IMG/VR virus record: IMGVR_UViG_3300028025_003904
Location: 32,001 to 96,000 of that record
DNA from: a virus
Direction: 5' to 3' (one strand)
DNA: 64,000 nucleotides
Part shown: in pieces, positions 1-8,523 of the stretch
Numbering within the stretch: position 1 is the stretch's first letter
Layout of the letters: each line of letters begins with the position of its first letter
The notes under the pieces: generated by a model
Seen by the model: only the letters and a program-made list of their open reading frames with translations
What the model was told of the DNA's origin: nothing
Database searches by the model: none
Program-made: the position numbers and the translations under genes

Positions 1-24
1 GCTGACCATTAACACTATAAACAA
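1..24 (-). tRNA. 5' part of a tRNA truncated by the window edge (identity unknown)
   Basis: Minus strand reads GTTTATAGTGTTAATGGTCAGC, an acceptor 5' strand plus D-arm, directly after tRNA-Cys; anticodon lies outside the window. Confidence 0.55.
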
Positions 25-26
25 CG

Positions 27-99
27 AGGTGAATATTGGATTCGAACCAATGTAAAAGGTTTTGCAGACCTCTACCTAAACCAACTCGGTCAATTCACC
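27..99 (-). tRNA. tRNA-Cys(GCA)
   Basis: Cloverleaf; anticodon loop CT-GCA-AA; GTTCGAAT T-loop; U73 discriminator. Confidence 0.93.
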
Positions 100-105
100 A
101 TTATG

Positions 106-177
106 TAGTTCCATAGAGACTCGAACTCCAACTTTGACATCCGTAGTGTCAGGTGCTATCCATTACACCATAGAACT
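106..177 (-). tRNA. tRNA-Arg(ACG)
   Basis: Anticodon arm TGACA-CTACGGA-TGTCA; TTCGAG T-loop. Confidence 0.92.
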
Positions 178-182
178 ATTAG

Positions 183-253
183 CACGTCCTAAAGGATTCG
201 AACCTCTATCATCGCTTTTGGAGAGCGGTATGCTACCATTACACCAAGGACAT
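183..253 (-). tRNA. tRNA-Trp(CCA)
   Basis: Anticodon arm CCGCT-CTCCAAA-AGCGA; G73 discriminator. Confidence 0.92.
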
Positions 254-323
254 GTATTTATTTCCAAAGTAAAAAATTACCTTCAAAAAATTTTCCAACC
301 TTTATCTAAAAGTTGAAAAAGTG

Positions 324-397
324 TAGAGAAAATAGGACTCGAACCTATAACCCCCGACGTATCAGGTCGGTGCTCTAACCAATTGAGCTATATCTCT
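324..397 (-). tRNA. tRNA-Ile(GAT)
   Basis: Anticodon arm CCGAC-CTGATAC-GTCGG; TAGCTCAATTGGTTAGAGC D-arm. Confidence 0.93.
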
Positions 398-400
398 GTG

Positions 401-473
401 TAGGGTGAGCGAGACTCGAACTCACATCCTCTTGCTCCCAAAGCAAGTAATCTAACCATTGATATACCACCCT
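401..473 (-). tRNA. tRNA-Pro(TGG)
   Basis: Anticodon arm CTTGC-TTTGGGA-GCAAG; TTCGAG T-loop. Confidence 0.9.
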
Positions 474-479
474 ATATTG

Positions 480-552
480 TGAACCCGTTGGGAATCGAAC
501 CCAAAACCCCTACATTAAAAGTGTAGTGCTCTACCAATTGAGCTACGAGTTC
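480..552 (-). tRNA. tRNA-Lys(TTT)
   Basis: Anticodon arm CTACA-CTTTTAA-TGTAG; canonical D and T arms. Confidence 0.93.
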
Positions 553-554
553 AT

Positions 555-631
555 TGGTGGAGCAGACAGGTATCGAACCTGTTCCTCTGGATTTTCAGTC
601 CAGCGCAATGAACCTCATCTGCCACTGCTCC
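555..631 (-). tRNA. tRNA-Phe(GAA), CCA encoded
   Basis: Anticodon arm CTGGA-CTGAAAA-TCCAG; acceptor GGAGCAG/CTGCTCC followed by ACCA. Confidence 0.92.
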
Positions 632-671
632 TTTAAATCCGATTTTGATATGTAGCATCGGGAACTACCTG

Positions 672-745
672 TGTCCATAGTAGGATTCGAACCTACACAA
701 TCTGGTTTCTAAAACCAGCACGGTTGCCAATTACGTCATACGGAC
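672..745 (-). tRNA. tRNA-Leu(TAG) with short variable loop
   Basis: Anticodon arm CTGGT-TTTAGAA-ACCAG; only ~5 nt (ATTGT) before T-arm GTAGG-TTCGAAT-CCTAC; A73. Confidence 0.85.
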
Positions 746-753
746 TTCTATTG

Positions 754-826
754 TAGTGAGTGAGGGACTTGAACCCCCAACATCCGCCATGTAAAGACGG
801 CGCTCTGCCAATTGAGCTAACCCACT
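754..826 (-). tRNA. tRNA-Val(TAC)
   Basis: Anticodon arm CCGTC-TTTACAT-GGCGG; TTCAAGT T-loop. Confidence 0.9.
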
Positions 827-837
827 ATTTCACCATT

Positions 838-850
838 ATGTCAAAGAACT
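838..850 (-). promoter_or_regulatory. boxA-like antitermination element within the tRNA array
   Basis: Minus strand AGTTCTTTGACAT resembles rrn boxA; similar elements at 2041-2053 and 3568-3581. Confidence 0.5.
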
Positions 851-858
851 TATTCTTG

Positions 859-930
859 CGTTGATGGTAGGATTCGAACCTACGACCAATAGATTAACAG
901 TCTACTGCGCTACCACTGCGCCACATCAAC
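859..930 (-). tRNA. tRNA-Asn(GTT), first tRNA of the array
   Basis: Anticodon arm TAGA-CTGTTAA-TCTA; GTAGG-TTCGAAT-CCTAC T-arm; G73. Confidence 0.93.
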
Positions 931-944
931 TTATTTTTAAACAT

Positions 945-976
945 AAAAAAACCCCTAACTTTTTGGGTCAGGGGTT
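945..976 (-). terminator. Intrinsic terminator (attenuator) immediately upstream of the tRNA array
   Basis: Minus strand AACCCCTGACCC-AAAA-AGTTAGGGG-TTTTTTT: GC-rich hairpin plus U7 tract. Confidence 0.85.
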
Positions 977-1003
977 GTTTTAATTTAAGTATGTAGTTTG
1001 GTT

Positions 1004-1147
1004 TTATCCCAAGTCTACATCGTTTAATATTGTTGCCCCTAACTGATTTTTAATTCCTTTCGAACTAAAATCACACACGCGATTGCCTGCCCACATCAAA
1101 TTTGATGTCGGTTGATAAGCTATCGTATGTAGGTTAAGAGTTTTCAT
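1004..1147 (-). CDS. 47-aa putative attenuator leader peptide MKTLNLHTIAYQPTSNLMWAGNRVCDFSSKGIKNQLGATILNDVDLG
   Basis: ATG at 1147 after an A-rich leader (AAATAAAGAA), TAA at 1006-1004; very high codon diversity; contains a copy of the terminator 3' arm. Below the ORF-track length cutoff. Confidence 0.75.
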   Translation of the reverse strand: MKTLNLHTIAYQPTSNLMWAGNRVCDFSSKGIKNQLGATILNDVDLG

Positions 1148-1195
1148 TTCTTTATTTATAATAATATATATGTAATTTTTTTATTTTAAGTTAAA

Positions 1196-2040
1196 AAGAT
1201 ACGGATGAGAATACTCACGTATGCGAACCGGCTTTCGTTGGATTATTGTTTCCCAACTTTTCCACTACCTTTTGGGTAGTACCGATTCAATGCGGGTTAG
1301 TTAAGCCAACCACTCATAAAGTTACAAACTACTCTCTCTTTACTCCGCTTCTTCTACTCTGCCGAACAGATTCACACTTGCGGTGTTAGAAGTTTTTCGA
1401 AAGAATCACAGACCTCTTGCGGAGGTATCGTGGCAAGGAACAACTCCCTACTATGTACGCACCTTTCGTTTGCAACTGACGAACACTTTTGCTCTTTTTG
1501 TTTATAGTTTGCACTAACCGGCAAATTGAGTTTGGTTTGTAGATGGTTTCAAGTAGTGGTTCGCCAACCTGCTCCGTTATCTTTTGAACAACAGAATACT
1601 GAACTACTCGATGTGTTATCCCTAACACCATACTTTAAGTTTGCTTCATAACTCCTACCTTGGTAGGTGAAGAGTAAGGATAATAACGACACCACTCGTA
1701 CTTTATCTTACCTTTCGGTTTTAAGTAAACTCTGATATTGAATCACGCAATTGTTGAAAGGGATTAAGTTTCAGTTTCTCGCAATAACTCTATGGATTAT
1801 TCTTATTGGTGTTCCCACCTCAACTGAACTATCTACTTTAGCCCAGTCATTTCACCACCCTCTTTACAGTGTTACCCTCAATACTAAAGGTGAAATGATA
1901 TTCCACTTGCCTACTCAAGCTCCTTTCGAAGCCGCAAATCACTTAAACCAAATGATTCACTTTATCCTACTTTCGTAGTTTATTTCACGACCATAGGCGG
2001 CCGATGTACACTATGTAGAACTCGTCTACTATGTGCTTAT
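1196..2040 (-). ncRNA. Large structured ncRNA, GOLLD-like (~840 nt; ends approximate)
   Basis: No credible ORF, higher GC than flanks, many minus-strand GNRA hairpins (1373-1385, 1412-1426, 1710-1719, 1919-1932, 1967-1978), upstream promoter and boxA-like site, next to phage tRNAs. Confidence 0.65.
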
Positions 2041-2110
2041 ATTTTAAAGAACATTTTTAATTTGATTAACCGAGTATCTTTCATCACCTATTGGTCTCAA
2101 ATCTATAATA

Positions 2111-2142
2111 CAAATATACGAAACTTTTTTCATATATCCAAA
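2111..2142 (-). promoter_or_regulatory. Bacteroidetes sigmaA-type promoter (TTTG-N20-TATATTTG) for the large ncRNA
   Basis: Matches the -33 TTTG / -7 TAnnTTTG consensus; near-identical copies at 2351, 2965, 3103 and 3585. Confidence 0.8.
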
Positions 2143-2164
2143 AACTTTTTAACTTTTTTTTAAG

Positions 2165-2340
2165 ATTGGTTGTCTCCGGCTTTTTAGCTTACCACTTATG
2201 GTTGGGCTTCACACATTCGGTTTTATTAGATGTTGGCTTCAACAACCATTCTTAAATATTGGATGAGTAGTGGGATGGTATTTCTACCTCTCGGGTCCTC
2301 TTAACACCGGACTTCTCCACACCGGCATACTAACCTCATT
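2165..2340 (-). ncRNA. Small structured RNA(s) of unknown family with own promoter
   Basis: Two closed domains on the minus strand: TGAG-GT-TAGT...ACTACTCA (2264-2338) and TGGTTGT...ACAACCA (2167-2249); promoter at 2351-2381; no credible ORF seen. Confidence 0.5.
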
Positions 2341-2350
2341 TTCAACATTA

Positions 2351-2381
2351 CAAATATACGAAACTTTTTTCATATATCAAA
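2351..2381 (-). promoter_or_regulatory. Bacteroidetes sigmaA-type promoter
   Basis: TTTG-N19-TATATTTG. Confidence 0.75.
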
Positions 2382-2398
2382 GTCTTTTTAACTTTTTT

Positions 2399-2944
2399 TT
2401 ACAAATTTCTTTTTGATATTTGAAAGTTAAACGATACCGTCATTCTTTCTGTATCAGCTGGTTCAACATAATGTGATAGTGTAGATGGAAAAAATAATAA
2501 TCTACCTTTAACTGATGGTATTTTATGTTTTCTCCCCTCTTTACAGAATACAGTATTAGATGTTGAATCCGATAGATACCATATACCAGAAATTAAATCG
2601 TTACCATGTGAGTGATACTCTTGATACTTTCCGTCTTTATAGTAATTCCACCATATCTCATAATCATATCTAAACTTTTCACCAAAATTATACGTTTTTA
2701 TATAAAATGGATGCAATTGAACAATACTCGTTACGTGTTCTATAATCTCATTTACATATGGTGTACCATATAACAAATCACTATTATGATTAAACGATGA
2801 AAAAGCACCACCATCCCAACTTTTTGGAGATGTATATTTTTCTGGCTCATTTTTTATTTCTTTTTTAATACCTTCAATCAATTCATCCGGTACTTCCAAA
2901 TGTGTATCGAATAAAGTAATTGGAAATATATTAAATTCGTTCAT
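2399..2944 (-). CDS. Putative 2OG-Fe(II) oxygenase (TIGR02466-like)
   Basis: YQEYHSH...SGIWY...LLFFPSTLSHYV...ERMTVSFN metal/2OG motifs. Confidence 0.85.
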   Translation of the reverse strand: MNEFNIFPITLFDTHLEVPDELIEGIKKEIKNEPEKYTSPKSWDGGAFSSFNHNSDLLYGTPYVNEIIEHVTSIVQLHPFYIKTYNFGEKFRYDYEIWWNYYKDGKYQEYHSHGNDLISGIWYLSDSTSNTVFCKEGRKHKIPSVKGRLLFFPSTLSHYVEPADTERMTVSFNFQISKRNL

Positions 2945-2962
2945 CTACTATCAAAATGTTTT

Positions 2963-3154
2963 TACAAATATACGAAACTTTTTTCATATATCCAAATGAT
3001 TTCTCATTTATTTTTGGTTGCGGGAGACAGAATCGAACTATCGTAGACCTGGCTTATGAGACCGGTGGGAAACCAACATCCTCCCCGCGATTTATTATGA
3101 TACAAATATACGAAACTTTTTTCATATATCCAAATGATTTCTCATTTATTTTTT
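2963..3154 (-). repeat. ~52-bp direct repeat (2963-3014 and 3101-3152) carrying the promoter, flanking tRNA-Met
   Basis: tacaaatatacgaaactttttcatatatccaaatgatttctcatttatttt-like sequence occurs twice essentially identically; shorter copies at 2109, 2349 and 3583. Confidence 0.85.
3015..3089 (-). tRNA. tRNA-Met(CAT), initiator-type, CCA encoded
   Basis: 5' CGCGGGG with C1:A72 mismatch; loop CT-CAT-AA; ends ACCA. Confidence 0.85.
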
Positions 3155-3155
3155 G

Positions 3156-3565
3156 TGGAGATGCAGGGATTCGAACCCTGGTCCAGATAAGTTTCTAATG
3201 TAAATCGTTCACAAGTTTATTCAATTTTTCTAAACTGAAAAAATATAGAGTTTCTATTTTGCCATTATCACTCTCAACTGTGGAAGATTCACTTTAGTAG
3301 GTAGAACCTCAAACGAGACCTTATTCCTTTTTGGGTAGAAATCACACCTGGGTTCACATTCTTTTTTACCTCATGATGTGTACGAGGAAGATTAGGCAGC
3401 TACTGCGTAATCGAATGAGTTCATCCATGCCATAGCATCTTCGAACGTCATTGTAGATAATTCTACGTTTGCACTTATTGTTTGATAGGTCTTCAAAGGT
3501 TTCCATCTAACCTTACTTGCATCAATACAACCAGTCTTCATATCTGTCAAAAGCCGGTCATCCCC
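3156..3565 (-). ncRNA. ssrA: tmRNA; tag ANVELSTMTFEDAMAWMNSFDYAVAA* at 3392-3472
   Basis: 5' GGGGATGACCGGCTTTTGAC and 3' GGACCAGGGTTCGAATCCCTGCATCTCCA with G3:U70; tag ORF ending YAVAA; promoter at 3585-3616. Confidence 0.93.
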
Positions 3566-3634
3566 ATATTTCAAATAACGTTTACAAATATACGAAACTT
3601 TTTTCGTAATTCCAAATAATATATATCTTTTTTT

Positions 3635-4171
3635 TTATTTTACGTTCCGTTTTGATAATTGAAAATTAAACGCTACTGTCATTCTTTCATCATCCGATGG
3701 TTCTACATAATGTGGTAGGTAAGATGGGAAGAAAACTATTTTACCTTTCGTTGGTAAAACTTTGTGTTTAAGACCCCTATCACAAAATACAGTATGTGCA
3801 TTTGAATCATTCAAATACCAAACTCCAGAAAGTATATTGTTAGCATGACTATGGTATTCTTGATACTTTCCTGCGGTATAATAATTCCACCACATATTAT
3901 ATTCATAAATAAAATTATCACCAAATCCATTGTAAGGTGGTGTAGTTTTAACTATTTCTATAACATTATTTATTATTTGATTGTGCTCTTTAGTACCATA
4001 TAATAGTTTGCTTTCATAATTAAAAGATGAATATACACCACCATCCCAATCAATTGGAGTATCATATTTAGTATCATCTTTTATATCTTCTCTAATACCA
4101 TCAGTTAAAGAATCTGGAACTTCTATATAATTCTCAAATATTCTTATTGGAAAAATATCAATACTTTGCAT
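3635..4171 (-). CDS. Putative 2OG-Fe(II) oxygenase, close paralog of 2399-2944
   Basis: WWNYY..GKYQEYHSH...FFPSYLPHYV...ERMTVAFNFQ. Confidence 0.85.
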   Translation of the reverse strand: MQSIDIFPIRIFENYIEVPDSLTDGIREDIKDDTKYDTPIDWDGGVYSSFNYESKLLYGTKEHNQIINNVIEIVKTTPPYNGFGDNFIYEYNMWWNYYTAGKYQEYHSHANNILSGVWYLNDSNAHTVFCDRGLKHKVLPTKGKIVFFPSYLPHYVEPSDDERMTVAFNFQLSKRNVK

Positions 4172-4201
4172 ATTTAATCTTCAAAGTTTAGTATATCTTT
4201 T

Positions 4202-4762
4202 TTAAAAATCGTATAAACCAGCAACTGATTTAATATTACAATCTGAATTAAATGATATAATTGTTTTTACTATATTACTTTCTACGTTTGGTGCTCTATG
4301 TAATATAAAACTTGGGAACGTTAAAACATCTCCTTCTTTTACATCCAGCTCAATAATTTCTTTTTGATTCATTGGATTTAACAATTGAGTTTTTGGTGCT
4401 CCTTCTGGTAAATCTACATAATATACATTGGTAAATTGACAACCTAAATGGACATGCCACCCATGCTCTGAACCTTTTCTGTATTGTTGAAACCAAATAT
4501 TCCGTATAGTGATTTCATTGTATCCCATTTCTAAAAATCGCTTTTCCATTAGTTCAACTATTGGAGGCATTGCTATTTTTAAATAATGTCTTTCAACATC
4601 CCTATTTACATCCCAATCGGTTCTAGTTATATCTGTGTAATCTTTTGGATACGAATAGCGAGTTGCTTCTGCATCGTTTATTAAATCTAAAACATCTTCC
4701 TTTATTAAATCATGCTCCGATAGTTTGGAAATGATATATGGACATTCAATCCCTTTAATCAT
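4202..4762 (-). CDS. Putative 2OG-Fe(II) oxygenase
   Basis: WFQQY...HGWHVH...EGDVLTFPSFILHRA...KTIISFN. Confidence 0.82.
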   Translation of the reverse strand: MIKGIECPYIISKLSEHDLIKEDVLDLINDAEATRYSYPKDYTDITRTDWDVNRDVERHYLKIAMPPIVELMEKRFLEMGYNEITIRNIWFQQYRKGSEHGWHVHLGCQFTNVYYVDLPEGAPKTQLLNPMNQKEIIELDVKEGDVLTFPSFILHRAPNVESNIVKTIISFNSDCNIKSVAGLYDF

Positions 4763-4765
4763 AAT

Positions 4766-5371
4766 TTAATTTTCAAAATTTAAAATAACATTACCCGCTG
4801 CTACTATTCTTTCTTTTGTAGAAAATCTAGATAAAGATGGTAAATGTTCTAAATTTGCATCGAATGCGTATATATAACCTTCTTCTGGAAAAAATGAATG
4901 TGTTATTCTAGGGTCCTTATCATCTTTAAAAAATAACTTCCCCTCTGCTCCAGTACAATTATCGGGTACTTGCAGATAATATACCCAAGTCCAATCTGTA
5001 AATGTATCGGAATCTGTTGGATGAAATTTTAAATGATTGTGATAGTGTGCTTGTTTTAATTCAGGCACTGCTATGTATATCCAAGTTCTTTGGTATCCAC
5101 TTAAATACTTTTCATTGTTTAGTTCCGTAAAAAAATCTCTTACTTTATTATAACATAAAGAAAACATATTACGGGTTTCATCACCACATAGAGTTTGTCC
5201 ATCCATTTGTAAACCAGGTGCTCTCATACGAGTATCGTTAAATCTCTTATCTGGCATCCACAAGTCTCTATCAATCTGTATTTCTTTAATAACTTTTTGA
5301 TTATCAATACCACTCATAGGTATTTTGTAAATCTTATGGTTTAAAAAACCAATTTCTTCATAACTAATCAT
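4766..5371 (-). CDS. Putative 2OG-Fe(II) oxygenase
   Basis: HYHNH...WVYYLQVP...PEEG...FDANLEH...RIVAAGN. Confidence 0.75.
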   Translation of the reverse strand: MISYEEIGFLNHKIYKIPMSGIDNQKVIKEIQIDRDLWMPDKRFNDTRMRAPGLQMDGQTLCGDETRNMFSLCYNKVRDFFTELNNEKYLSGYQRTWIYIAVPELKQAHYHNHLKFHPTDSDTFTDWTWVYYLQVPDNCTGAEGKLFFKDDKDPRITHSFFPEEGYIYAFDANLEHLPSLSRFSTKERIVAAGNVILNFEN

Positions 5372-5385
5372 AACTTATTATTCTC

Positions 5386-6186
5386 CTATTTCATATTTTT
5401 TAATGCTCTTGCAGTTGCTATCCATTTTTTAGCAATTGGATTTGTTATTGGTTGTGCTAAAAATCTAGCTGCTGCTTTTGTTACATCACCATGCTTAACA
5501 CCCACTACCGAATTATCTACAATTGAGAATTTGTATCCACCAAATAATCTTTGGAACTTACCCATGTTCTCTTGACATGCTTTCCAACTCTTTACCAATA
5601 ACTCTTCTGGTACTACTCTACTTCTTTGTAGGTTTCTTTCTTTTGCTACCTCCAATGATGTGTTTACAAACACCATATAACAATCATATCCTAACTCTTC
5701 AGCGTGTCCTTTTTGTTTAGCAATCTTATCGTACTCATGTCCAGTACCATCAATAATCATACCCAATCTACCGGCTTCGTAAAAATCTTTTAATTGCTTT
5801 GTTATTACCTTCGCCTTATTACGAATTGAATCAGATGATTTACCTTGTATTTTATCCCATAATTGTGGGTCTTCTTTTTCAATTTTTGCTAAATCCTTTG
5901 GGTCTATACCATTCTTTTTTAAACCAGCTTCAAATGCCGAATCTGAATTTACAACTTTCAAACCAGATGGTGCAAACTTTGTATAATCAACTACTCCAAA
6001 TATTTCTTTTGACATAAATCCTTTACCACTACCAGGTCCACCTGCTAAAAATATACACTTAAAGATACCGGGGTCATCAACACCCTCTGCAATCATTTGC
6101 TCTTGCAACTTTTGCTTTGTTCTTTGTAAGTATATACTTAACGTAGATAGTTCATCTACTGCTTCGTTCAATAAATGTTTGGACAT
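5386..6186 (-). CDS. Zeta-toxin-like P-loop kinase
   Basis: AGGPGSGKG Walker A, VNSD, IIDGTG and ERN..R.R lid motifs. Confidence 0.75.
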   Translation of the reverse strand: MSKHLLNEAVDELSTLSIYLQRTKQKLQEQMIAEGVDDPGIFKCIFLAGGPGSGKGFMSKEIFGVVDYTKFAPSGLKVVNSDSAFEAGLKKNGIDPKDLAKIEKEDPQLWDKIQGKSSDSIRNKAKVITKQLKDFYEAGRLGMIIDGTGHEYDKIAKQKGHAEELGYDCYMVFVNTSLEVAKERNLQRSRVVPEELLVKSWKACQENMGKFQRLFGGYKFSIVDNSVVGVKHGDVTKAAARFLAQPITNPIAKKWIATARALKNMK

Positions 6187-6225
6187 AGTTTTAATTAGTT
6201 TATATAGTATAAATATATATTTTTA

Positions 6226-6399
6226 TTAAATATGTGTCCAAATTTCTCTTTTAACTATCTTACGAATGTTAGTTGTAGATACTCCGTTGTTAGATGCTAT
6301 AACTTTTAAATTACGATGTCCCATCTTCCACAATGCTCTTATCATTTCCACTTGTCCATCTGTTAGTTTGTGGTTTGGATGTTGTTCGCCTTTTAACAT
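6226..6399 (-). CDS. 57-aa small DNA-binding protein resembling the C-terminal helix-turn-helix of phage HNH endonucleases
   Basis: Translated by hand: MLKGEQHPNHKLTDGQVEMIRALWKMGHRNFKVIASNNGVSTTNIRKIVKREIWTHI; fills the gap between neighbours; not in ORF track. Confidence 0.7.
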   Translation of the reverse strand: MLKGEQHPNHKLTDGQVEMIRALWKMGHRNLKVIASNNGVSTTNIRKIVKREIWTHI

Positions 6400-6402
6400 T
6401 TA

Positions 6403-6783
6403 TTAAAGTCCTACATTTTCCCAATTCGAATTGATGAACCCAGCATCCCTACCAACGGCAACTGCCATAGCACGTGCGTTTTCGGGCTCACCCTTTGAAT
6501 TGTTGTTGATTAAAATTCTTTCTTCTCGTCCGATACCCATTACGATTTGGTGATAACGGATACCTGCGTTTTCCATTTGTTGTTTAGTAATCAGTTCCAA
6601 ATGCCAAGGCCTAGCGGTTGTTAATACAATGTGATGACCGGCTTCATACCACTCATTCATTTTCTCTTTCACACCTGGCAACACATTTACTACGTTAGGG
6701 TCTAAATCTTCAAAACGAACTTGCTCAATCAAAGTACCGTCTATATCACTAAAAATCGTTTTGTAATTTTGTTCTCTTTTCAT
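6403..6783 (-). CDS. HAD-superfamily phosphatase
   Basis: DIDGT motif I; LTTAR motif II. Confidence 0.8.
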   Translation of the reverse strand: MKREQNYKTIFSDIDGTLIEQVRFEDLDPNVVNVLPGVKEKMNEWYEAGHHIVLTTARPWHLELITKQQMENAGIRYHQIVMGIGREERILINNNSKGEPENARAMAVAVGRDAGFINSNWENVGL

Positions 6784-6862
6784 ATCTTTTTAATGTTTAA
6801 CTCTCACTACTCTATAAAGGTAAGTAAAAAAATCTACATTTCCTAATTTTATTTCATTTATT

Positions 6863-7183
6863 TTATAAATAAGCAACTCCATAAACACCATATTTGGCAG
6901 TTCCATCAATGATGTTTCCTCTACTATGTTTGGCGGCAGAGTCACGAGAAGCGGCTTTCATTAAATCACCTTTCTTAATTGGTACTCCTTTGTAATCACC
7001 ATTATAACGGGAGATAAATCCCCACACACTTCCGTTGCTAATTAGTTTAATAAACTTACTACCAACACGCATTTCTATTGGTTTGGGTGTTAGGTTTGAT
7101 AAGTGAGTTGCGTAGTAATCAGCAATTTCTAAATTAACTTTGTCAATAAATGCATTAACGATTGGGTTATTGTAGTTTTTCAT
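6863..7183 (-). CDS. Hypothetical early phage protein
   Basis: GDLMKAAS...AKHSRGNI motif seen in small phage proteins; upstream promoter-like repeat shared with 6811. Confidence 0.7.
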   Translation of the reverse strand: MKNYNNPIVNAFIDKVNLEIADYYATHLSNLTPKPIEMRVGSKFIKLISNGSVWGFISRYNGDYKGVPIKKGDLMKAASRDSAAKHSRGNIIDGTAKYGVYGVAYL

Positions 7184-7368
7184 ATCTTTGTTGTTTTATG
7201 TTTATCTCTTATTACTCTATAAAGGTAAGTAAAAGTTTTCACATTTCCTAGTCTTTCCTAAAAAACTTTTCATAAATTTCCAAAATAATATATTCAGCTA
7301 AACACACTACTGAAAATACCATAATGATTGAAACCATCCAAATATCTTTTGCTATTCTATACATATTA

Positions 7369-7749
7369 TTATGTTCTAAAGTGTGCTCCGTTTGATGACC
7401 ATCCTTTGGAGTGATTACTATATGTTGGACGAGGGGTGTATGCGAATGAACCCGCTGCCATTCGAGAGGTATTACCAATCGCATCCCAATCTGATTCCCA
7501 TTTATTATCCGATAATAAAATACCATCTTTAATGATGATGGCGTGTTTACCAGTATTACCAAAAGATGGACCAACACTTTGTATGTTCTTTCTATCCAGC
7601 TTCCAAAAGGTATTTTTACGATTTACTCTATCAACCTCAATAAACAAAATTGAACGTGCTTTTACTTTACACACCTTAATGTCTTTAGAATCAGATTTAC
7701 CATTTTTGGAAACCATCACTTCGACAATTTGACCATTTAAATATTCCAT
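7369..7749 (-). CDS. Hypothetical protein
   Basis: 126-aa ORF on the coding strand with an upstream promoter-like element (~7770-7805). Confidence 0.65.
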   Translation of the reverse strand: MEYLNGQIVEVMVSKNGKSDSKDIKVCKVKARSILFIEVDRVNRKNTFWKLDRKNIQSVGPSFGNTGKHAIIIKDGILLSDNKWESDWDAIGNTSRMAAGSFAYTPRPTYSNHSKGWSSNGAHFRT

Positions 7750-7815
7750 ATCTTTATCGTTTTGTTATATAGTAAAGATAAGTAAAATAAATTAAAAAGT
7801 CAAGTCTTTTCTAAA

Positions 7816-8523
7816 TTATTTTTTAGGTTTTTTTATTGCGGCAAATGCGGTTTTGTATGCAGGTGATGTTTTATCGTAACCCAATGCAGTTTTAACTTTG
7901 ATATTTCTACCCGTTTCTGGATTCTTTATTCGTTTATCCAATGCACCTACGGGTATCATAGATGATAATTTTTTAATATTGGCTTGTTGTTTTTCTGCAC
8001 CGGCTTTTGTTCCACTTTGTGCTTTTTTTCCAGTCTTAAACATCATCGTTTTTTCTTTATCTCTAAAATTAGAGTACGCTTGACCTATTTGATTTGGGTG
8101 AAACTTACCTATGTTTTCCTCACCACCTTCTCTAAAAATTAAATGTGCATTTCCTTTTGTATCCTTACCACCATATATAACAGAATCTTGGTTATACTTT
8201 TTTACAATATGTTCCATAAATTCTTTTGGTGCACCTGGTATAAACAAAGTTTCTTCTACTGCGTCTACCAATTTATCAGATGGGCACTTTGCATATGGTA
8301 TGGCTGAATCTTGACACTCTCTCCAATGTCCACTTACTTTAAAAAACCCTAAACCCCGTTTTCTGCAATCCGCTTCTAATTGTTTATTTAATTTTTTATT
8401 TTCAGCAGGTGTATTGGCGTAACGATATGCACTTGCCATTCCCCAACTAGGAACTTTTTTATCTACCACGTGTTGATATGCTCGTGCTAATGATGCTTCG
8501 TCTAATTTATGAAATTTTTCCAT
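7816..8523 (-). CDS. Conserved hypothetical phage protein, possibly head-packaged
   Basis: 235 aa; N-terminal LDEA; late-type motif upstream; C-terminal IKNPETGRNIKVKTAL. Confidence 0.7.
   Translation of the reverse strand: MEKFHKLDEASLARAYQHVVDKKVPSWGMASAYRYANTPAENKKLNKQLEADCRKRGLGFFKVSGHWRECQDSAIPYAKCPSDKLVDAVEETLFIPGAPKEFMEHIVKKYNQDSVIYGGKDTKGNAHLIFREGGEENIGKFHPNQIGQAYSNFRDKEKTMMFKTGKKAQSGTKAGAEKQQANIKKLSSMIPVGALDKRIKNPETGRNIKVKTALGYDKTSPAYKTAFAAIKKPKK

Follow-up and report, generated by a model that had tools for sequence, protein, structure and literature searches.

The first block of tRNA genes in the phage genome IMGVR_UViG_3300028025_003904 is preceded by a short leader open reading frame (ORF) and by a hairpin with a T-run, and here we ask what this leader does. 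The stretch of DNA analysed, called the window throughout, is 64,000 nucleotides (nt) long and corresponds to positions 32001-96000 of that linear virus record, which has 120,104 bases and an estimated completeness of about 66%. We propose that the element is a ribosome-mediated (leader-peptide) transcription attenuator gating the phage's first tRNA block, and we put the probability of this reading at roughly two in three. An initial annotation, made from the letters of the window, had described a codon-sampling leader peptide and an attenuator ahead of the tRNA array, and had suggested that together they sense the loss of any host tRNA. Comparison of the window with its relatives supports the attenuator, both in the architecture of the predicted RNA and in the sampling of amino acids. 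The elements of the window itself were reproduced: the ORF of 47 codons at 1147-1004; its codon counts, i.e., 19 amino-acid types in the first 27 codons (without Glu), 27 distinct codons in 29 and 32 in 37; and the short repeats, AGTTAGGGG at 1044-1036 and 960-952 and CCCCTGACC at 974-966. The terminator claimed close before tRNA-Asn was also found independently, as a hairpin at 976-950 with 10 pairs and a T-run after it; tRNA-Asn starts at 930.

Deposited phage genomes gave no leader. A blastn search with positions 1-6000 returned only tRNA, GOLLD and oxygenase pieces from these genomes, with no leader among them, and a search with 931-1200 returned only AT-rich matches to query positions 1-65. 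Relatives were therefore sought through the adjacent GOLLD RNA. Scanning the viral collection for a GOLLD motif yielded 94 stretches, most of them with a GOLLD homologue. In the nine closest GOLLD-anchored loci, which were not ascertained on the ORF, the AT-rich element, a short ORF starting MKT(L/F)xLHT, the hairpin with its T-run and a tRNA gene all recurred. Most of the nine have two tRNA-Gly-like genes between GOLLD and the ORF, and the leader unit is still joined to tRNA-Asn. That the unit stays with the tRNA block despite these intervening genes indicates that it belongs to the tRNA block, not to GOLLD. The two tRNA-Gly-like genes, which lie 12-13 nt after GOLLD in the close relatives, are both absent from the window, and one of them has an odd anticodon loop according to ARAGORN. 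An oxygenase gene (2399-2944) was also tried as an anchor and gave six pattern matches in viral contigs, none of which was confirmed.

Pattern scans enlarged the set. The viral scan gave 12 true members among 25 stretches, and the metagenome scan gave at least 115 stretches. Out of a total of at least 134 pattern hits, 52 without a tRNA gene within 320 nt (chance matches or contigs ending early) were dropped. The leader family thus comprises at least 82 loci on uncultured phage contigs, or at least 63 distinct sequences after removal of duplicates, and counts out of 63 given below refer to the distinct sequences among the matches listed. A tRNA gene follows 163-293 nt after the ATG in every locus; it is Asn-GTT in 60 of the 63. 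In L045 and L134 the terminator is followed by what looks like a tRNA-Asn whose T arm is damaged; ARAGORN passes over it and calls instead the next tRNA, a tRNA-Gly, 290 nt after the ATG. The scan patterns fix codons 1-3 and 6-8, so that conservation at these codons is partly ascertained. Members with different N-termini (L086, L239 and L240) came from a third scan, with a mid-ORF motif, and from one GOLLD locus. For tests on the peptide we used the 52 distinct ORFs of at least 29 residues, leaving out L151 (18 residues) and L226 and L227 (26 residues each).

The initial annotation had proposed that a copy of the terminator's 3' arm inside the ORF pairs with the terminator's 5' arm. Covariation among the relatives supports not one but three mutually exclusive helices, 1:2, 2:3 and 3:4, made from four segments of the leader RNA (regions 1 to 4; Table 1). 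The hairpin with T-run, i.e., the terminator, was present in 63/63 relatives, and a complement of region 3 lay in the ORF or at its end in 63/63. In 60/63 the complementarity of region 2 to the terminator's 5' arm exceeded that of 200 shuffles at p<=0.05. Helix 2:3, the antiterminator, was paired in 93.3% of the 504 cells of the 63-sequence alignment, and five of its eight pairs showed compensatory changes, with pair types that include GC 38/AU 22, UA 38/UG 11/CG 10 and GC 37/UA 10. None of 500 shuffles matched the observed paired fraction, the number of doubly changed cells or the covariation score, and when the partner was slid by one to three columns pairing dropped to 24-66%. Helix 3:4, the terminator, was 83.1% paired, a figure lowered by alignment offsets, and here too five of eight pairs were compensatory.

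The third helix, 1:2, had been overlooked in the initial annotation. It joins codons 3-5 with the ORF-internal copy, and with it the layout is the full trp-type 1:2 / 2:3 / 3:4. The alignment for helix 1:2 covered 39 of 40 sequences with a common register, L095 being omitted; in the other 23 of the 63, region 1 is shifted by one base. All 273 cells (100%) were paired. Two of the seven pairs were compensatory, with 19 doubly changed cells, and the co-switching pairs were UA 22/CG 9/UG 8 and AU 28/GC 10/GU 1. The changes on the 5' side are synonymous swaps of a Leu codon (TTA/TTG) that are matched about 100 nt away: TTAAC/GTTAG occurred 42 times and TTGAC/GTCAG nine times, while the mismatched TTAAC/GTCAG never occurred. 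Likewise, the forbidden combination of GTCAG with CTAAC had no occurrence among the relatives. Region 2 was the best partner of region 1 in 63/63. For 1:2, 2:3 and 3:4, pairing energies were better with a sequence's own partner than with swapped partners, and none of 2000 permutations did as well. The start of region 2 falls in each of the three codon phases (17/24/22 of 63), which places the constraint on the RNA and not on the peptide.

Folding of the window's 230 nt gave two isoenergetic structures, the 1:2+3:4 fold at -63.9 and the 2:3 fold at -64.0 kcal/mol. The effect of a ribosome was modelled by masking the segment that it would cover, a check that the initial annotation had suggested: with the mask at the stop codon the terminator fold was obtained, and with the mask at codon 20 the 2:3 fold. 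An internal hairpin, TACATAC paired with GCGTGTGTG, was present in every minimum-energy fold. ACATAC stands opposite GTGTGT or GTATGT in 60/63, and the 5' side is set by the search pattern, which precludes a covariation test. The nested ATGTAG/CTACAT stem of the initial annotation does exist where it was placed, but it is confined to one sub-family (the window, L146, L038, L039, L063, L011, L230 and L151) and is invariant there. When RNAalifold was run on the whole alignment it gave 2:3 together with a 1:4 pairing (AAAACYYU with GGGGUUUU). The 1:4 pairing was set aside as a by-product, because region 1 resembles region 3 and region 2 resembles region 4, and because 1:4 would form only after the termination decision.

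An attenuator of this layout would work as follows. RNA polymerase, coming from the GOLLD promoter or from the AT-rich element just upstream, would transcribe the 47-codon leader, whose four segments would adopt one of two exclusive states, 1:2 with 3:4 (terminator on) or 2:3 (terminator off). If no ribosome were present, region 1 would sequester region 2, and 3:4 with its U-tract would stop transcription 14 nt before tRNA-Asn. An undelayed ribosome would reach the stop codon and sit on or beside region 2, and 3:4 would form again. A ribosome slowed between regions 1 and 2 would keep 1:2 apart and leave region 2 free, so that 2:3 would form and the tRNA genes would be transcribed. With all, or nearly all, of the 20 amino acids encoded before region 2, a shortage of any charged tRNA would raise tRNA transcription, and the leader would be a supply-and-demand regulator of the phage's own tRNAs. 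From the predicted folds we infer both termination and read-through at the leader, and a switch that runs from stalling to read-through. In nature the switch could be set off by decay of host tRNAs, by starvation or by anticodon nucleases.

The codon diversity of the window's leader, on which the initial annotation had laid weight, was beyond chance in three null models. Among 47-codon segments from the long ORFs of the window (n=1,722), 0.06% reached 19 types in 27 codons and none reached 27 distinct codons in 29. Among segments from short ORFs (n=552) the leader ORF alone reached 19 types in 27 codons together with 27 distinct codons in 29, and composition-matched random codons reached the leader's diversity values in 0-0.1% of trials. 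The diversity cut-offs were picked after looking, and the window has about 550 short ORFs, of which the leader is one; p-values from this single sequence are therefore on the generous side, and tests of amino acids at the level of the family are sounder evidence than the diversity of a single sequence. The 52 distinct leader peptides (31-53 residues) contain 20 amino-acid types in 44 cases, 19 in six and 18 in two. Same-length segments of the phage's proteins have on average 13.6-15.9 types, and 0.08-1.6% of them reach 20. In 43/52 peptides the codons for all 20 types come before region 2, and in 49/52 the peptide's whole set, whatever its size, is complete before that point. In four members all 20 types fall within the first 28 codons, for which the probability under independent, identically distributed draws is 1.4e-5.

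Common descent has to be considered as the source of this coverage. The conserved columns of the peptide alignment fix just nine types (F, G, H, K, L, M, P, T and W). When the variable positions were resampled from the phage's composition, P was 0.012-0.35 per representative, and the combined Fisher p was 1.7e-6 over 14 representatives, which are less than 50% identical in the variable columns and not fully independent. Cys, which makes up 0.8% of the phage's proteins, is present in 52/52 peptides, at seven or more alignment columns, and Tyr, Val, Asp, Glu and Arg likewise shift position between sub-families. The N-terminally divergent L086 (44 residues), L240 (39 residues) and L239, which lie outside the N-terminal pattern, have 20 types each. 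Judged from these sequences, descent alone is no explanation of the 20-type coverage. The codon sampling of the initial annotation thus stands for amino acids, with all 20 in most peptides, and is weak for synonymous codons: the excess over phage usage was 2.5 codons on average, with P<0.05 in 15/52 leaders. The window's leader has 34 distinct codons against 28.9 expected (P 0.004).

The position of the leader relative to the tRNA genes was also as first described. The leader always heads a tRNA block, with one leader per array. All 20 amino acids are served by the 23 tRNA genes of the whole record, of which the first block holds 11. Amino acids with a tRNA in the following block were missing upstream of region 2 in 0 of 231 cases and the other amino acids in 12 of 320 (p 0.0018), a comparison made over the 29 of 52 loci whose blocks are not cut by a contig end. 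A broader claim is that the 40-50-codon leader is a sensor for all amino acids and tRNAs, in which evolution retains one or more codons for each amino acid before the antiterminator, such that depletion of any charged tRNA, whether by host shut-off, starvation or anticodon-nuclease defences, would switch on the phage tRNAs, and that it would thereby serve both as a feedback regulator of decoding capacity and as a counter-defence device with a direct reading of the host's tRNA pool. We consider the chances of this broader claim to be evenly balanced.

The initial annotation had expected covarying stems and an unconserved peptide. The three helices do covary, but the first 26 or so residues of the peptide are conserved, with W, H and F invariant and P and G nearly so. 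This N-terminal conservation is probably due in part to RNA helices; codons 3-5 are region 1, and the codons for L-H-T and [S/R]-[V/M]-F are the ACATAC/GTRTGT stem. Such conservation, accompanied by synonymous variation at P and G, would also be expected if the switch were real and answered another signal, either as an arrest peptide (W-x-G-I-x-[M/V]-F) for a small molecule or factor, or as a sensor of ribosome availability or translation inhibition. Known leaders of a similar kind answer many insults, an example in the available text of PMC10274678 being the whiB7 upstream ORF (uORF). However, arrest does not need all 20 amino acids, and the coverage is upheld by residues that change position, Cys for example, and is complete before region 2 in most peptides. 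With part of the peptide conservation coinciding with helices as well, we regard a switch of this other kind as unlikely.

The position of the stop codon bears on the direction of the switch. The stop lies 12-18 nt past the last paired base of region 2 in 47/63, and exactly 15 nt past it in 26, and this spacing is kept though leader length varies (38-53 codons); in three short variants it is lost, the stop overlapping region 2 or lying directly against it. A spacing of 15 nt would place region 2 where the rear edge of the terminating ribosome lies. If the direction were reversed, translation of the leader would open 1:2, allow 2:3 and turn the tRNA block on, a lack of ribosomes would turn it off, and stalling would play no special part. 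Region 1 lies at codons 3-5, where any initiating ribosome would disrupt 1:2, and a region 2 mostly at the edge of the terminating ribosome's footprint might be free to pair with region 3. Nevertheless, the tight keeping of the stop by region 2 suggests that the terminating ribosome is meant to interfere there, and a reversed switch offers no purpose for the coverage of all 20 amino acids upstream of region 2. We consider a reversed direction quite improbable.

The short ORF is kept open. The frame from the ATG to region 2 was free of stops in 61/63, compared with 0/63 in either other frame; over the 63 sequences there were two stops in frame and 205 and 285 in the other frames. Conserved Thr, Leu, Pro and Gly positions vary synonymously. 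The start context of the leader is A-rich and without a Shine-Dalgarno sequence, as in the phage's genes, where a Shine-Dalgarno-like 4-mer was found in 11/86. From these features we infer that the leader ORF is translated. An open frame would be incidental, or would serve to clear structure, in an RNA-only switch that binds tRNA, protein or ligand. The leader RNA is highly structured, at -64 kcal/mol for 230 nt, it has structured RNA neighbours in GOLLD and tmRNA, and T-box leaders are known to sense tRNAs by means of a terminator/antiterminator pair. The openness of the one frame, the conserved stop position and amino-acid coverage, and the lack of any Rfam leader family above threshold in 1-8000 make an RNA-only switch very improbable.

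Upstream of the leader, the end of GOLLD lies 54 nt before the ATG, and no terminator was found between them. An AT-rich element, TATAYTTAT / ATATATATTA, related to TATAAATA, stands 3-17 nt before the ATG in 57 distinct upstream sequences, and is kept whatever sequence stands farther upstream. The AT-rich spacer may be a promoter or a translation-initiation region of the leader. Its element occurs once in the window and does not resemble a promoter-like box of 16 nt, GTTTCGTATATTTGTA, which has five identical copies in the window, each within a longer repeat, against a chance expectation of 0.12. One box each stands ahead of the GOLLD RNA, the tmRNA, the first oxygenase gene, a short unit and an RNA-like unit of about 180 nt (2345-2165). 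A sigma-70 promoter scan of the window was uninformative given the phage's own box, which we take to be of the TTTG...TAnnTTTG type. On the other side of the leader, tRNA-Asn follows the T-run after 14 nt, a gap that leaves no room for a promoter.

RNA data for the region consist of assembled contigs, from which 3' ends, strand and level are not readable. In the GOLLD region, four contig sets from freshwater metatranscriptomes had word depths between tens and about 12,000 over 1241-1984, much higher than in the surroundings. Cover over 993-1116 was low (0-8.6) and, coming from contigs only, carries no evidential weight. One RNA-library contig, X15 record 1 (1108-1424), joins the 3' part of GOLLD to the start of the leader. 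An ordinary GOLLD terminator beside an unrelated small protein gene, with the repeated 9-mer a product of chance or the remnant of a duplication, would suit the 54-nt gap without a terminator, the steep fall in RNA contig depth past GOLLD and this joining contig, but it is already disfavoured, and in our view very unlikely, given that regions 1, 2, 3 and 4 covary with each other, that relatives with tRNA-Gly-like genes after GOLLD keep the unit on tRNA-Asn, and that a PHROGs search gave no family for the leader peptide.

Several points weigh against the attenuator as proposed. The window's own leader lacks Glu, and its stop codon is 30 nt, not 15, past the last paired base of region 2. The conserved first 26 or so residues would also fit a peptide that has its own function. 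Third-position entropy is only mildly above that of positions 1 and 2 (1.12 vs 0.95 and 0.96), and the signal of selection at the peptide level that codon-position entropy offers is weak. The small excess of synonymous codons may come from G+C-rich stems. A pair-counting measure was not significant for 1:2 (480/500 shuffles) and was borderline for 2:3 (15/500), and since the sequences share ancestry, the figures from shuffles, permutations and the Fisher test overstate independence. Contig X17 record 18 (depth 5.7) covers 905-1200 without a break, i.e., the leader, the terminator and the start of tRNA-Asn; it could be read-through RNA or DNA carry-over. L151 is near-identical to the window except that it has TAG at codon 19 in place of the invariant Trp codon, giving an 18-codon leader, and yet it keeps the helices, the terminator and the spacing to tRNA-Asn. 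It could be a natural early-stop variant or an assembly error. Finally, the proposal assumes coupling of ribosome and RNA polymerase in the host, which is probably Bacteroidota-like.

The second tRNA block also counts on this side. It has 12 genes, including one for Glu, and a promoter-like box of its own, which resembles the 16-nt box; no leader was found there, from which it follows that the leader need not control all 23 tRNAs. The region between the two blocks (G000:C1:29539-31948, minus strand, outside the window) holds an ORF of 738 codons with a signal-peptide-like start, and its 2.4 kb contain no T-run of six or more. Transcription from the first tRNA block might run on past this inter-block region.

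Table 1. Positions of the leader, its pairing segments and its neighbours in the window
Feature	Position	Strand	Basis or remark
Leader ORF, 47 codons + TAA	1004..1147	-	19/20 amino acids, Glu absent
Region 1, CTCTTAAC, codons 3-5; pairs with region 2 (anti-antiterminator)	1133..1140	-	covariation
Internal leader hairpin, TACATAC (1131-1125) / GCGTGTGTG (1080-1072)	1072..1131	-	folds
Region 2, GTTAGGGG, codons 35-38; antiterminator 5' arm, copy of terminator 3' arm	1036..1043	-	covariation
Inner stem, ATGTAG (1020-1015) / CTACAT (996-991); loop holds TAA stop (1006-1004)	991..1020	-	sequence, folds
Region 3, CCCCTGAC; terminator 5' arm and antiterminator 3' arm	967..974	-	covariation
Region 4, GTTAGGGG (959-952) and seven T (951-945); terminator 3' arm and U-tract	945..959	-	hairpin scan
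tRNA block: Asn, Val, Leu(TAG), Phe, Lys, Pro, Ile, Trp, Arg(ACG), Cys; His past window edge	1..930	-	tRNA prediction
AT-rich spacer with TATAAATA at 1160-1153	1148..1201	-	sequence
GOLLD RNA, conserved 3' domain (upstream neighbour of leader)	1202..1611	-	Rfam RF02032
Five copies of the 16-nt box	2109-2124, 2349-2364, 2963-2978, 3101-3116, 3583-3598	-	sequence
Phage tmRNA	3153-3565	-	83.7 bits; predicted tag 26 residues

The low end of the window thus carries, in minus-strand order, the five promoter-like boxes, the tmRNA, GOLLD, the spacer, the leader ORF, the hairpin with its T-run and tRNA-Asn. RF02032 matched 1611-1202 with 296.7 bits (gathering score 150; E 9.3e-85; model positions 1-416), and the match was recovered likewise in a scan of the whole record. 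The whole GOLLD RNA probably starts at about 2100, downstream of the promoter-like box at 2124-2109. Occurrence of phage GOLLD near tRNA islands has been described before (10.1101/2024.12.08.627333). Four tandem ORFs of 178-201 codons lie at 2399-5371 on the minus strand; the translations of the first two show them to be clear paralogues, and the ORF at 2399-2944 matches a 2OG-Fe(II) oxygenase PHROG at 3e-27. Farther along, the minus-strand ORF at 20474-22009 matches a tryptophan halogenase PHROG (2e-109), an auxiliary gene unusual in a phage. The phage is myovirus-like, with genes for a tail sheath, tail fibres, ribonucleotide reductase, a DnaB-type helicase and several 2OG-Fe(II) oxygenases. 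G+C is 34%, and many lake-water metagenomes contain near-identical DNA.

Known regulatory families did not account for the leader. In 1-8000, cmscan in E-value mode found no Rfam family at threshold besides GOLLD, tmRNA and tRNAs. The only match to a leader-type model was Thr_leader, over the terminator region, with 25.8 bits against a gathering score of 55 (E 0.16), and the T-box model had no match at E<=1 in 1-8000. The leader shares with attenuators as a class an intrinsic terminator, an antiterminator that excludes it, and a helix 1:2 overlapping the putatively translated region, with the effect of the ribosome modelled; of the features of classical leaders, tandem or clustered cognate codons and a match to a curated model were not found. 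The classical attenuators are trpL, hisL, leuL and pheL, with thrL and ilvL as multivalent ones. The phage element would resemble these amino-acid operon leaders in its short leader ORF, its 1:2, 2:3 and 3:4 segments, its terminator just before the genes and a fold decided by the position of the ribosome. It differs from them in that it precedes tRNA genes and not biosynthetic enzymes; in that it has no run of a single residue, the phage leaders carrying all 20 types, mostly once or twice; in that its region 1 occupies codons 3-5 and its region 2 falls within the ORF, with 12-18 nt left to the stop; and in that there is no similarity of sequence or model.

Three other systems invite comparison. 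T-boxes are untranslated, bind one uncharged tRNA directly and choose between terminator and antiterminator. The phage leader would be like a T-box in this choice and in the sensing of tRNA supply that we propose for it; it differs in that its frame is kept open and in the lack of a match to the T-box model. According to the available text of PMC10274678, knocking down many genes for tRNAs, synthetases and amino acids activates the mycobacterial whiB7 (wblC) uORF. In the same text, stalling is believed to cause antitermination and the composition of the uORF sets the response, features in common with our proposal, but the whiB7 uORF belongs to a cellular stress regulator of a transcription factor and is enriched in Ala, not balanced over the 20 amino acids. 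As far as it is described there, it is neither linked to tRNA genes nor homologous to the phage leader. The trn L-array of Anabaena PCC 7120 is likewise an accessory tRNA array, silent by default and on when translation is impaired. As presented in the available portions of PMC8421152 and PMC10272220, however, it is cellular and megaplasmid-borne, and its control is exerted at the promoter by the repressor TrcR acting on direct repeats. In those portions the string 'attenuat' occurs in neither paper, 'leader' is absent from PMC8421152 and 'leader peptide' from PMC10272220. Within the full-text literature, a scope in which subscription journals largely fall outside, we found no published leader-peptide attenuator before phage tRNA genes.

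Meaning for phage biology would follow at several levels. The prevailing view of phage tRNA arrays is that they sustain late translation and help the phage to evade tRNA-cleaving defences. The link to GOLLD gives a transcriptional context for an abundant RNA of unknown function. If the attenuator is as we propose, it would be the first regulatory logic described for phage tRNA arrays, one in which the speed of decoding is gauged by a test peptide and tRNAs are made on demand. It would also extend attenuation from one to three amino acids to all twenty, and from operons of enzymes to genes of RNAs, and a device this small that responds to translation stress in general might find use as a tool.

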